Positions 1 through 14,363 are shown, counted from the first letter of the stretch. The stretch: DNA of 15,824 bases from a virus (IMGVR_UViG_2663763282_000011); one strand, 5' to 3'. The notes: generated from the sequence alone by a model not told the origin. Translations and numbers: made by a program.

Positions 1-1230
1 ATGAGCAGAGCACTTAACAAACTGAGCGATACACAGCTGAGGAAAATCAACGGCACACCCGCCCAAAAAACAGCCTTTCTTAATGACGGTGGAAACCTGA
101 GCGTCAGGCATTCAACCAGTGGCCTTTTAACCTGGTATTTCACTTACAGGGCCGGAACGGGAAGGGGGGCACCACCGGAACGCATTAAGCTGGGAAATTA
201 TCCTGATCTGAGCCTGAAATCAGCCAGGGAAAAAGCCGCCCAGTGTCGCGCATGGCTGGCAGAGGGGAAAAATCCACGTCATGAGCTTAATTACACCGTA
301 CAGGAAGCGTTAAAGCCGGTAACGGTTGGCGATGCGCTCACCTACTGGCTTGAGTCGTACGCAAAGGAAAACCGCGTGGATTATGCCGCCCTGAAAAAGC
401 GCCTTAATAATCACGTAATACAGCACATTGGTGCTATGCCGCTGGATAAATGCGAGCTACGGCACTGGCTGGCCTGTTTTGACCAGGTGGCAAAGCGAAC
501 GCCTGTTACTGCCGGATTCTTGCTACAGACGTGCAAACAGGCGCTTAAGTTCTGCCGGAGGCGGCGCTATGCAATCAGCAACGTTCTTGATGATATGAGT
601 GTGGCGGACGTTGGGAAAAAACCGGATATAAGCGAGCGTGTCTTAAGCACCAAAGAACTGGGCGAATTATTGCAGGCACTGGACAAAAAAATATTCTCCC
701 CCTACTACATCGCGTTAATCCGCCTCCTGATTGTGTTCGGATGCCGGACGGTAGAACTGAGGTTATCGGAGATCAGCGAGTGGGATTTTACCGAAATGCT
801 CTGGACCGTGCCGAAAGAACACAGCAAAACGAAGGTGGCAATATTCCGGCCCATACCGGAAGCAATACTGCCGTTCGTCACGCAGCTGGTGGAGCAGAAC
901 AGGCACACGGGCTTATTGCTGGGGGAAGTGAAACAGGAAACAAGCGTGTCGCAGTACGGCAGATTAGCGCACAGGAGGCTAAATCACCCTCACTGGTCAC
1001 TACATGACATCCGGCGCACCTTTACAACGATGCTGAACGATTTAGGCGTGGATCCTCACGTCGTGGAGCAGCTTACAGGCCACCAGATGCCAGGAATGCA
1101 GCGAGTTTATAATCATTCCCGTTATCTGGATGCTAAACGCAATGCGCTGGATATGTGGACGGAGCGGTTAGGGATACTGGCGGGAACACATGAAAACGTA
1201 ACCACGCTACCAGTAGCCAGAAGAAAATAA
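1..1230 (+). CDS. int: Site-specific tyrosine recombinase (P4-type integrase), 409 aa
   Basis: The C-terminal region has the catalytic signature of tyrosine recombinases (HDIRRTFTT...LTGHQ...VYNHSRYLD, i.e. R, H-x-x-R and Y). The N-terminal 'LSDTQLRK...GNLSVRHSTSG...YFTYR' resembles the arm-binding domain of P4-like integrases. The ORF starts at the ATG at position 1, so the true 5' context is outside the window. Confidence 0.9.
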   Translation: MSRALNKLSDTQLRKINGTPAQKTAFLNDGGNLSVRHSTSGLLTWYFTYRAGTGRGAPPERIKLGNYPDLSLKSAREKAAQCRAWLAEGKNPRHELNYTVQEALKPVTVGDALTYWLESYAKENRVDYAALKKRLNNHVIQHIGAMPLDKCELRHWLACFDQVAKRTPVTAGFLLQTCKQALKFCRRRRYAISNVLDDMSVADVGKKPDISERVLSTKELGELLQALDKKIFSPYYIALIRLLIVFGCRTVELRLSEISEWDFTEMLWTVPKEHSKTKVAIFRPIPEAILPFVTQLVEQNRHTGLLLGEVKQETSVSQYGRLAHRRLNHPHWSLHDIRRTFTTMLNDLGVDPHVVEQLTGHQMPGMQRVYNHSRYLDAKRNALDMWTERLGILAGTHENVTTLPVARRK

Positions 1231-1269
1231 TTTTTTTCGTGTTTTTTCAGTATGCGCATACTGGATATG

Positions 1270-1325
1270 CGAACAGATACAACGTGCAACAATGAGCAAC
1301 AATGCGGAACAACTACGAACAAGAG
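1270..1325 (+). repeat. Tandem array of about 10-bp units each containing AACA(A) (gcaacaatga / gcaacaatgc / ggaacaacta / cgaacaagag, with weaker units upstream), phased at 10 bp
   Basis: Read directly: units start at 1286, 1296, 1306 and 1316 with an AACAA core, in the AT-rich int-alpA intergenic region. Confidence 0.45.
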
Positions 1326-1604
1326 GTGAAAAAGTGTACAGATTTATAAGTAGCTGATTTTTAATGTGTTACTGATTTTTTATACACTAGCGAATCACTC
1401 TTTAAATAGCGAGAAAAAAGGCATGAAACAATATTTTATGCCTTTGTATTAACATGAATTTAAAGGATTTTATCCTGATTATTCCTCTTTCTGTAAACCA
1501 TACGGCCTCAACATTTGCCAACTCTGAATCATCCTGACACAATCAGACACATCCCAACGCAATAGAACACGAAATAACTCTTTAAGAAACGAAAGGGGGC
1601 AATA

Positions 1605-1793
1605 GTGTTAAGCACTGATCGGTTTATACGTGAAAAAGAATGCGAAAAGCTAACAGGCCTTAGCCGCTCATGCCGCTACCGCCTGGAAAAGGCCGGACAA
1701 TTCCCATCACGTCGTAAACTTGGCGGTCGTTCCGTTGGCTGGTCTTTATCCGAGGTTCTGGCCTGGAAGGATAGCTGCAAGGCAGTTCATTAA
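1605..1793 (+). CDS. alpA: AlpA-family phage transcriptional regulator / excisionase-like HTH protein, 62 aa, GTG start
   Basis: Translation 'FIREKECEKLTGLSRSCRYRLEKAGQFPSRRKLGGRSVGWSLSEVLAWK' matches the AlpA/MerR-like winged-HTH pattern. Strong SD (AAAGGGGG) lies 6-7 nt upstream of the GTG. Position directly downstream of int is typical for Gram-negative PICIs and P4-like islands. Confidence 0.85.
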   Translation: MLSTDRFIREKECEKLTGLSRSCRYRLEKAGQFPSRRKLGGRSVGWSLSEVLAWKDSCKAVH

Positions 1794-2062
1794 TCACGCT
1801 GGCGGCACGCAGCCGCCACACATCAATCATCTGAACACAGAGCTATAACCATGAAGATTGAATATACGCCAGAACGTGGGCGGGGATTCGTTCGCCCTGG
1901 TGAAACTGGAAAACCACAAAATTGGGGTTTTTCAGGCATAAAAAAAGCGGCCCCGAAATGGAGCCGCCTTTCTGAACAGATAACCCGCTGCGCCGTTTGT
2001 GTGTGTGATCCCAAACATAAGCACGGGGATGATAGCCGCTATCAGGCTGGTGGGCAATGCAA

Positions 2063-2239
2063 TCAGTCTGGTTCAGTGCGTTGCCATAACTGCGAAGTTC
2101 TCTCCTTTGATGAGTATTCTTTAAGGTACTTCTCAAGGGCAAAAGAACACGGCGCGAATCGTTCTGATTCATGCTCTTTCTTTCTGCGTCGTCTTTTTCG
2201 TGCAGGTGATGTTTTTTCGGTTGATTCTTCGTTGGTCAT
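2063..2239 (-). CDS. Hypothetical small basic protein, 58 aa (MTNEESTEKTSPARKRRRRKKEHESERF...)
   Basis: Open frame on the minus strand co-directional with and just downstream of the RHH gene. No convincing SD. Below the ORF-track length cutoff, found by manual translation. Confidence 0.2.
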   Translation of the reverse strand: MTNEESTEKTSPARKRRRRKKEHESERFAPCSFALEKYLKEYSSKERTSQLWQRTEPD

Positions 2240-2296
2240 TGTGTGCGCCTGTAAAGCAATGCGCCGTAGTACCTCACACCACGGCGCTGATAGTTT

Positions 2297-2476
2297 TTAT
2301 CCTTTGGGTTCTATGCCGCGTTGCTGTAATTCTTTGCGGATTATTCGCTTTATCCAGGCAGCAAGAGAATCATCGCCGTCCTGTTGTTGTGCCTTTTCCA
2401 TCTTTTCCCGTAAGTCAGGATCTAAACGGAACTGGAACGGAGGATTACCACGCCTTTCGTTTTTGTGTGTTGACAC
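2297..2476 (-). CDS. Arc/MetJ-type ribbon-helix-helix DNA-binding protein, 59 aa, GTG start
   Basis: Manual minus-strand translation '(M)STHKNERRGNPPFQFRLDPDLREKMEKAQQQDGDDSLAAWIKRIIRKELQQRGIEPKG' aligns position by position with phage P22 Arc (beta strand 'FQFRLDP', helix A, G-x-S, helix B). GAGGTG SD lies about 8 nt upstream of the GTG. The overlapping + strand ORF 2200-2481 looks non-protein-like. Confidence 0.55.
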   Translation of the reverse strand: MSTHKNERRGNPPFQFRLDPDLREKMEKAQQQDGDDSLAAWIKRIIRKELQQRGIEPKG

Positions 2477-2477
2477 G

Positions 2478-13272: not shown

Positions 13273-13285
13273 TGAGGTCAGCAGC

Positions 13286-13567
13286 ATGACAGAAGCCGAA
13301 ATACTGCGATTAATCCGCCGCGTCTCTGGAATCAGCCAGCAGGCTGACGAACAGACCACGCAGCCGGACAGCGTGACAGCCGAAAATTATGCGCGTGTTG
13401 TTGCTGAGGTGATGCGCCGTGATGGTATCCAGCTTAATGATGCGGATATGCGCGACATACGGATCCGCGTTCTGGAAATGCTGGCCTACAATCGCCGCGT
13501 TGAACTGTATCGGGAGAAGGAGAAAATCACGTACCACTGGAAGAAGCCGGAGCGGTTACGGCGGTAA
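13286..13567 (+). CDS. Hypothetical protein, 93 aa; last gene of the element
   Basis: TGAGGT SD about 9 nt upstream. No recognisable family. Confidence 0.5.
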   Translation: MTEAEILRLIRRVSGISQQADEQTTQPDSVTAENYARVVAEVMRRDGIQLNDADMRDIRIRVLEMLAYNRRVELYREKEKITYHWKKPERLRR

Positions 13568-13816
13568 CTCACTGAGATTAAAGCAAAGCGCAAAATTGCG
13601 CTGGCTACATCCCTCACATCTGAGGACTGTTAACCAGCAGGCCGGAATATATTCAGAAACTACGAAATTTTCGCAGTTTAATTACTCGTCAGCTTAATCG
13701 CTAACCCGCTCTGATATTTTCGGAAACCTCAATTTGAGGAAGTCGGCGAGGTAACTGTTTGATATTCCCGATAGCGCAAAGATGCGCGGTCGGGCAGAAT
13801 GACCACCACCTCAATC

Positions 13817-13851
13817 GTGACGGAGAGTGACAACCAGTGACACACCGTGAC
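13817..13851 (+). repeat. Four direct copies of GTGAC(A) at exact 10-bp phasing (13817, 13827, 13837, 13847)
   Basis: Read directly: cGTGACggagaGTGACaaccaGTGACacaccGTGACaaaaag. Helical phasing suggests a protein-binding array such as integrase arm-type or excisionase sites near attR (inference). Confidence 0.5.
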
Positions 13852-13969
13852 AAAAAGACGGTTTAACCGTTCATTAAAAATCGACGTGATTTTGTGCTTT
13901 CCGGATGACGTGGCCAACGTCATTTTTTAGCGAAAAATTCTGATTAAGGTCACTGGCTGAACGGTCATA

Positions 13970-14086
13970 ATGACCACGCAGACCATCGAGGCAACCATAG
14001 CGATCATCGTTACGGTTGGAGCTTTTCCGCCATTGGTGGAAAAGGTGCACATCTGGATCATCATTACGGTGATCAAGGGTATGTAA
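13970..14086 (+). CDS. Candidate small hydrophobic (single transmembrane helix) protein, 38 aa: MTTQTIEATIAIIVTVGAFPPLVEKVHIWIIITVIKGM
   Basis: Manual translation. No strong SD. The antisense frame is also open (45 aa), so coding status is uncertain. Confidence 0.25.
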   Translation: MTTQTIEATIAIIVTVGAFPPLVEKVHIWIIITVIKGM

Positions 14087-14204
14087 AACCCACCAGCCTG
14101 ATTAAAGGTTAACCGGAAAAAAAATCCGGTAGCCCCGTTATGGGGATCCCCATATCGACATTAACGCCCCTCATGAATTGGTGCGCTTCCCCCTGGAAAG
14201 ATTA

Positions 14205-14297
14205 CCCGCCTGTATATTTCTTGTGTCTATTTGTTCCACGTTGTTTCATACAGTGCACCGAACGGTGTAGTTAATGGTGTAGTCAATTTGCGATTTT
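14205..14297. promoter_or_regulatory. Right-junction region carrying a second copy of the capsid-operon control motifs (CCCGCCTGT at 14205-14213; TTGTTCCACGTTGTT at 14231-14245) plus tandem direct repeat GGTGTAGT(T/C)AAT (14264-14286)
   Basis: The 15-bp TTGTTCCACGTTGTT is identical to 6629-6643, and CCCGCCTGT is identical to 6724-6732. Both were compared by eye. Confidence 0.4.
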
Positions 14298-14363
14298 TGG
14301 CACTTTTTCAATGAAAATTGTTTGATCGAATCAATGACTTGATGTAGTGGTAAAAGGACATAT

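Follow-up and report, generated by a model that had tools for sequence, protein, structure and literature searches.

A Shigella flexneri counterpart of the capsid-forming satellite EcCIEDL933, most likely unable to package itself

The sequence IMGVR_UViG_2663763282_000011, a stretch of 15,824 nucleotides of viral DNA (the window in what follows), had been predicted to hold a phage satellite with complete capsid and packaging machinery of its own, resembling the phage-inducible chromosomal islands that form capsids (cf-PICIs). Very probably, it corresponds in Shigella flexneri to EcCIEDL933, the cf-PICI prototype from Escherichia coli O157:H7 EDL933 (10.1101/2022.09.08.507074; 10.1101/2025.02.11.637232), and it probably is by now a broken relic, most likely without self-packaging. 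Hence, the word "complete" has to be dropped from the original prediction: the capsid gene carries an in-frame TGA at 7684-7686, and the start of terS cannot be read in the window and is lost through a deletion from each of the seven S. flexneri loci that we retrieved via the truncated capsid product.

The cf-PICI class, its prototype at the same locus, the structure of the T=4 capsid (PDB 9gyi) and the part that adaptor and connector play in the choice of tails are already published. What is new here is modest, that is, a widespread S. flexneri copy of the EcCIEDL933 type whose capsid gene bears a nonsense codon, the retrieved relatives having in addition a deletion at the terS start.

Source and boundaries of the island

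An exact search with a capsid segment led to S. flexneri SFBU1023. Among the seven retrieved loci, L012 (CP004057.1) is 100% identical to the window at 1-8608 and at 11353-15824, and a single mismatch falls in 8700-11189; given this near-identity, the window is S. flexneri DNA. Six of the seven loci, all except the draft L009, are 99.7-100% identical to the three blocks of the window that contain no N.

The att core was defined by comparison with the empty site of E. coli K-12 and with L012. The right core, attR (GGACATATTT, 10 bp, 14356-14365), extends over the first two bases of the stop codon of phoQ, and the right end of the island is therefore situated there, rather than at 14300 as had been proposed. 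The attL core is identical to attR and adjoins roxA, 172-181 nt upstream of the first base of the window and hence outside it. Thus, the element is a discrete island bounded by att repeats at chromosomal genes. The distance between the identical 10-bp cores is 14,366 bp in L012, of which the window contains 14,355; the size given for cf-PICIs is about 10-18 kb (criterion i of 10.1101/2025.02.11.637232).

The phoQ gene (14364-15824, minus strand; PhoQ_Sensor, E 2e-87; 99.9% identical to E. coli phoQ) belongs to the chromosomal flank and not to the island. Beyond both att cores, only chromosomal genes (roxA, pepT, phoQ, phoP) were observed in all seven loci. The original prediction had left room for tail or lysis genes contiguous with the head module beyond the window; none was seen in the flanks of these loci, including tail-like genes just past the window. 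In the empty K-12 site, roxA begins 75 nt past the phoQ stop codon on the same strand (positions 4242-4316 of locus L003). The island places 14.4 kb between roxA and the phoPQ operon, and the expression of roxA might change.

Assignment to the EcCIEDL933 type

By its locus and gene content the element is a cf-PICI of the EcCIEDL933 type, situated at the EcCIEDL933 locus. In EDL933 (NZ_CP008957.1, 1680329-1695400), the prototype starts with int at 1680329 and ends just short of the stop codon of phoQ at 1695617 (about 15.4 kb, compared to 14.4 kb here). Both islands are inserted at the same position, with roxA on one side and the phoQ stop codon on the other, and they share an identical integrase and the gene order from int through the 93-aa gene, with 93-100% identity in int, alpA and the proteins of the packaging module; hence the likeness to cf-PICIs, proposed from the sequence, held when the comparison with EcCIEDL933, an experimentally validated member, was made. 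At least 80% of the island was found in 130 complete E. coli genomes, the best of which have only about 93-96% identity over about 90% of its length.

The genes predicted for the plus strand (int, alpA, a primase/rep gene followed by iterons, the head module, HNH, TerS and TerL) are borne out by Pfam and PHROG matches. An integrase is at one end, regulation is of the AlpA type, and a D5-type primase (all by Pfam matches) is accompanied by iterons at 5529-5756. We observed matches of hidden Markov models (HMMs) for 11 of the 11 cf-PICI core components, and each of the eight cf-PICI packaging genes has a family match, TerS being visible only from residue 29 because of a run of N. The capsid and terminase calls also stood up to the HMM search (PF05065, TIGR01558, TerL_ATPase, TerL_nuclease).

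All genes described below are on the plus strand unless stated otherwise. The HK97-fold major capsid protein (gene of 385 codons, 6859-8016; PF05065, split over two open reading frames, ORFs) is 98.4% identical to that of EcCIEDL933; the EDL933 capsid protein itself matches PDB 9gyi (E 7e-257). The next genes encode the prohead serine protease S78 (8056-8717; PF04586, E 1e-47; 97% identical to the EDL933 protein, as are the following percentages), whose frame spans a run of 88 N, and the portal protein (403 aa, 8719-9930; PF04860, E 8e-88; 97.8%). The head closure protein Hc1 (Phage_HCP, 112 aa, 9927-10265; PF05521; phrog_25; PDB 2kz4, E 3e-70; 96%) would form the tail-docking interface together with the gp6-like head-tail adaptor Ad1 (98 aa, 10262-10558; PF05135; phrog_40; 96.9%). 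They are followed by the HNH endonuclease (146 aa, 10558-10998; PF01844; phrog_144; 99.3%), which is the partner of terminase in HK97-type cos packaging, and by the hypothetical gene h60 (60 aa, 10982-11164; phrog_3173; 100%). The latter probably is "gene 1792" of the published work, if the numbering runs consecutively from capsid gene 1786. The small terminase TerS of the P27 family is readable at 11355-11627 (residues 29-118; TIGR01558; phrog_83; 100% over 90 aa), and the large terminase TerL (553 aa, 11611-13272; TerL_ATPase, TerL_nuclease; 98.7%) has a TTG start. The last gene of the island is hypothetical gene h93 (93 aa, 13286-13567; phrog_1561; 93.5%), which, as had been noted, is the sole ORF between terL and phoQ.

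Given the 96-97% identity of adaptor and head closure protein to their EcCIEDL933 counterparts, the expected tail partner is HK106-like. The suggestion that adaptor and connector set the helper range agrees with published experiments, in which these genes decide what tails are captured (10.1101/2025.02.11.637232).

For cf-PICIs, SatelliteFinder (PMC10085698) forbids lysis genes and a tail module. In agreement with the original prediction, no tail or lysis family was matched in Pfam or PHROG by the annotated genes, nor by 60 additional alternative-frame ORFs of at least 38 aa on both strands (58 of at least 50 aa and two shorter ones); these additional ORFs matched nothing but two PHROGs without known function and, weakly, an Arc-like repressor. 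The gene-free stretches (374, 288, 303 and 788 nt) are too short to hold tail genes.

Three other systems were compared. Classical PICIs of Gram-negative bacteria (EcCICFT073, EcCIED1a) resemble the island in the half comprising int, alpA, the primase and the origin, and in the AlpA-dependent induction by a helper. However, they remodel helper capsids and have no portal, adaptor, connector or TerL, all four of which the Classical PICI model forbids, whereas the island encodes portal, adaptor, head closure protein and TerL. HK97 and HK97-like siphoviruses, such as the helper HK106, share with the island the HK97-fold capsid, the S78 protease, the portal, the gp6-like adaptor and, for cos packaging, HNH, TerS and TerL. 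They differ in that tail, lysis and lambdoid immunity genes are lacking in the island, the protein identity to the phages is low, and the capsid is T=7 in HK97-like phages compared to T=4 in the prototype EcCIEDL933. The gene transfer agent (GTA) of Rhodobacter capsulatus (6tb9, 6tba) has homologous capsid and portal proteins and a small HK97-fold head, but the DNA that it packages is random host DNA, and it has tail genes of its own, so that the relation is one of homology only. This GTA is the best solved relative of the capsid after the cf-PICI structure (6tb9/6tba, E 3e-46); the portal matches it at E 1e-19, more weakly than the phage portals 9lbn and 8cez.

A nonsense codon in the capsid gene

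The capsid gene contains the in-frame nonsense codon W276* (TGG to TGA, 7684-7686), which divides it into pieces of 275 and 109 aa, the Pfam capsid domain falling on two adjacent ORFs. In the base-by-base alignment at the stop, made with two relatives, EDL933 and RM6927, both have TGG at this codon; this is a difference between the window and EcCIEDL933. The 61-mer around the stop has counterparts in 349 complete E. coli genomes, none of which (0/349) is identical to the window. The best E. coli matches listed (98.4%) each differ by one base, and in EDL933 and RM6927 this base is the one that makes the stop.

The same TGA was observed in S. flexneri SFBU1023 and in seven of the seven loci, these having been retrieved via the truncated capsid. 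Independent complete genomes that carry it are CP182556.1, CP004057.1, CP026799.1 and CP026810.1, and it occurs in a metagenome scaffold; an exact metagenome scan with a TGA-bearing 37-mer yielded no match. The 275-aa product occurs in 3556 index blocks and at least 1000 contigs, under such names as "bacteriophage protein [Shigella flexneri]" and "phage capsid family protein [Shigella flexneri 2003036]". Judged by these records, W276* is widespread in S. flexneri.

The truncated protein has no residues K290, D295, E319 and R345. In the EcCIEDL933 capsid, single substitutions at K290, D295 and E319 reduce or abolish transfer, the point mutants K290D and E319K abolishing it, and R345 has been called critical.

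Two other readings of the TGA were considered and rejected. Programmed recoding disagrees with the tryptophan conserved in every E. coli relative and with the otherwise identical flanks; a sequencing error disagrees with the identical TGA in independent complete genomes.

Runs of N and the start of terS

The window holds 250 N, that is, 88 at 8612-8699 and 162 at 11191-11352, and a poly-G tract precedes each run. The first run corresponds to about 2 real nucleotides in gap-free relatives; hence the 216-aa protease ORF is an artifact, and the true length of the protease is 190 aa. The second run covers the gap between h60 and terS (a putative cos site or promoter) and terS codons 1-28. There is also a T-to-G miscall at 11174, at a contig end. 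Since the window is a scaffolded draft with unreliable gap sizes, ORFs crossing the runs of N are artifacts. The TerS call of the original prediction stood (P27 family, from residues 29-118), but the 97-aa ORF at 11174-11467, which had been read as TerS, did not, as it consists mostly of X.

The stretch hidden by the second run is 180 nt long in E. coli relatives versus 82 nt in all seven S. flexneri loci. The difference is a deletion of 98 bp between two CCCCGCC repeats, which takes out the ATG of terS, its ribosome-binding site and 75 nt upstream; the closest complete relatives of the window thus differ from E. coli with islands of the EcCIEDL933 type, where these 98 bp are present. The only canonical in-frame start remaining after the deletion is a GTG without a Shine-Dalgarno sequence, yielding 103 aa. 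TerS is probably crippled in the S. flexneri lineage, as far as may be judged from these loci.

Proposed working and present state

EcCIEDL933 is induced in a helper-dependent manner, for which AlpA is required (10.1101/2022.09.08.507074). It builds its own small capsids, T=4 shells of 240 HK97-fold subunits, packages only itself, and needs just the tails of the helper. Knockouts of its packaging genes abolish transfer, that of gene 1792 severely reduces it, and in all of them replication is intact.

With the steps taken from this literature, the life cycle of the intact island would begin with a helper phage switching on alpA, followed by excision and by replication from the island's own iteron origin by its own primase. 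The capsid protein, protease and portal would then form small T=4 capsids of HK97 fold, HNH, TerS and TerL would package the island's own cos DNA, and the head closure and adaptor proteins would dock the filled heads to tails of a helper siphovirus.

Since the capsid is cut at codon 276 of 385 and the terS start is deleted in the retrieved relatives, the copy in the window most likely is no longer capable of the last three steps, namely, capsid building, self-packaging and tail docking. No damage is apparent in Int, AlpA, the primase, the origin or either att core; the island may hence still excise and replicate, although it would have lost self-packaging and high-frequency transfer. Most likely, the present state is that of an inducible, excisable, replicating island without capsids or self-packaging. 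Intact packaging genes and capsids of its own are expected of a functional cf-PICI, and the TGA at capsid codon 276 departs from this; it counts against a working member of the family, not against descent from it.

In locus L008 (CP026810.1), the early region of the island contains an additional IS1 (5719-6012), and terL is split into pieces of 371 and 183 aa (14582-16242). By such sequences, decay is ongoing in some S. flexneri strains, L008 being an example.

Alternative explanations

Several points weigh against a broken relic. UGA is the leakiest stop codon of E. coli, and its misreading by tRNA-Trp would put the wild-type residue back; in this way, some capsid protein of full length may arise. 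The terS deletion is invisible in the window, as this stretch is N, and the length of 162 N fits neither 82 nor 180 nt. HK97-type cos sites are localized in the gap that follows the HNH gene and precedes terS, where the deleted upstream sequence also lies; from this position we infer that the 98-bp deletion may also remove cos. A mapped cos site of EcCIEDL933 was not found in the cf-PICI papers (10.1101/2022.09.08.507074, 10.1101/2025.02.11.637232). The literature search found no experiment on the Shigella element, and for a cf-PICI defect in S. flexneri it returned general cf-PICI papers only.

If the TGA is read through, and terS is either translated from an alternative start or intact in the source strain, the island could be a fully functional cf-PICI. 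This would be consistent with the other packaging genes being intact and 96-100% identical to those of the functional prototype, with the wild-type protein resulting from readthrough by tRNA-Trp, and with N masking the 5' part of terS in the window. Still, a T=4 shell needs 240 capsid subunits, a number that readthrough, at a few percent or less, is unlikely to supply. A G after the stop codon gives relatively efficient termination, and the base following the TGA of W276* is G. Moreover, single changes downstream of residue 276 already abolish transfer, and the ATG and ribosome-binding site of terS are missing in all seven loci with this allele. We thus regard a functional island as decidedly unlikely.

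It is even less probable that an immobilized island is kept for a new role, with, for example, the 275-aa capsid fragment or the intact terminase or HNH protein interfering with HK97-like phages. By analogy with HK97 we infer that the fragment would retain the N-terminal scaffolding domain, the N-arm and the E-loop; the truncated allele is very widespread, and the remaining island is 99.7-100% identical among strains. On the other hand, S. flexneri is a young lineage, so that retention needs no selection, the IS1 and the split terL in L008 indicate continuing decay, and PADLOC, applied to ten ORFs without known function, found no match to a defense system. Taken jointly, UGA readthrough and retention in a new role are still unlikely, if less so than either of them separately. 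There is only a small chance that the island with the truncated capsid is not simply dead, being mobilized at low frequency by UGA readthrough, or having the 275-aa fragment, HNH and TerL kept against HK97-like phages.

The HK97-type head module would also agree with a decayed HK97-like prophage stripped of its tail and lysis genes, as decayed prophages are abundant in Shigella genomes. However, the att cores are identical and have roxA and phoQ directly outside them, and no prophage remnants (tail, lysis, lambdoid immunity) were found inside the att-bounded element. The same architecture of 14-15 kb is present in 130 complete E. coli genomes and is that of the experimentally defined satellite EcCIEDL933, and the module of AlpA, primase and iterons is of the PICI type, not lambdoid. 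This leaves a prophage origin a very slim chance.

Lastly, an intact island disguised by draft sequencing or assembly errors, as the scaffolding, the two runs of N after poly-G tracts (one of them about 2 real bases) and the T-to-G error at a contig end might suggest, can practically be dismissed, being refuted for the TGA by its identical presence in the four complete genomes, the metagenome scaffold and the 3556 index blocks, and contradicted by the 98-bp deletion in seven of seven gap-free loci.

Other genes and regions of the island

The tyrosine integrase (409 aa, 1-1230; Pfam Arm-DNA-bind_3 and Phage_integrase) is 100% identical to that of EcCIEDL933 over 409 aa by tblastn. The AlpA regulator (62 aa, 1605-1793; PF05930, E 5e-18) is 98.4% identical to that of EDL933; in PICIs of Gram-negative bacteria, AlpA is the helper-activated inducer (10.1101/2022.09.08.507074).

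Downstream of alpA there is a variable early region (1851-3465) with a 248-aa ORF without a family match (1851-2597), an Icd-like gene (2606-2806; NCBIfam and PHROG matches) and small ORFs with PHROG matches only (2754-3017, 2962-3162, 3232-3465). Two possible genes are on the minus strand, one of 59 aa (2297-2476; Arc-like/YlcI-YnfO, phrog_228, E 2e-6) and one of 58 aa (2063-2239; phrog_21027, E 3e-12). At 1843-2597 both strands carry ORFs, relatives in RefSeq are annotated on either strand, and the AT skew changes sign in 2001-2500. Here the third positions of the plus and minus ORFs coincide, so that a count of substitutions by codon phase cannot separate the strands. A minus-strand ORF at 2594-2944 matches phrog_4106 (E 4e-45) and lies precisely opposite the Icd-like gene; of the two PHROG families concerned, phrog_4106 and the Icd-like one, one is probably built from shadow ORFs.

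Next come a DUF4222 protein (99 aa, 3471-3770; PF13973, E 2e-24) and the replication module, with the primase/replicase (582 aa, 3767-5515; D5_N, DUF5906, Pox_D5; phrog_864 DNA primase, E 1e-169) and the predicted replication origin (5529-5756). The latter contains nine exact YTNTCTACC iterons (five direct and four inverted) and two near-copies around AT-rich spacers. These nine are the only exact copies of the motif, compared to 0.49 expected, and none of 200 shuffles reached nine; thus, the iterons that had been noticed after the primase gene are soundly called. This module differs from that of EcCIEDL933, which has a 710-aa DUF927 replicase instead of a 582-aa D5-type primase with its own iterons; the identity of the primase to the EDL933 Rep protein is 53% and confined to the first 228 aa. 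Module exchange has been described for PICIs and cf-PICIs, and it would fit the swapped replication module.

Between the origin and the head genes, at 5804-6555, there are ORFs of 92 aa (phrog_1231) and 101 aa (phrog_27268) and an ssb-perC remnant (53 aa, 6394-6555), in which the first 25 codons of ssb are joined to the C-terminus of perC; in this fusion, too, the window differs from EcCIEDL933. The remnant is not a private lesion of the window, as E. coli MFDS1006657 carries the same one, annotated as partial ssb and partial PerC. A terminator-like hairpin of 23 nt (6577-6599) is present in a single copy. Relatives have it twice (L004, 10063-10085 and 10417-10439), with a cassette of 332 nt that holds a 74-aa ORF between the two hairpins; the cassette is missing from both the window and L012, where a single hairpin remains, the outcome to be expected if the repeats recombined. 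The cassette, which EcCIEDL933 contains, is a variable insert, being absent also from E. coli RM6927. In the promoter and terminator scan of the window, the only useful sites were terminators at 6578-6595 and, downstream of the capsid gene, at 8026-8047; predicted promoters did not exceed chance.

The right arm of the island (13568-14355, 788 nt) is gene-free, with only short unsupported ORFs and with no annotated feature in relatives; the Rfam scan of the whole window (E up to 0.1) gave no match. Though without annotation in them, the arm recurs at 96-97% identity in about 20 complete E. coli genomes. Integrase arm sites would account for only a part of its 788 nt.

Implications

For surveys of satellites, this island is a caution, as counting HMM matches without checking the reading frame may mislead, and runs of N can make the gene calls in a window seem more complete than they really are. 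For Shigella, it is a further instance of the decay of mobile elements.

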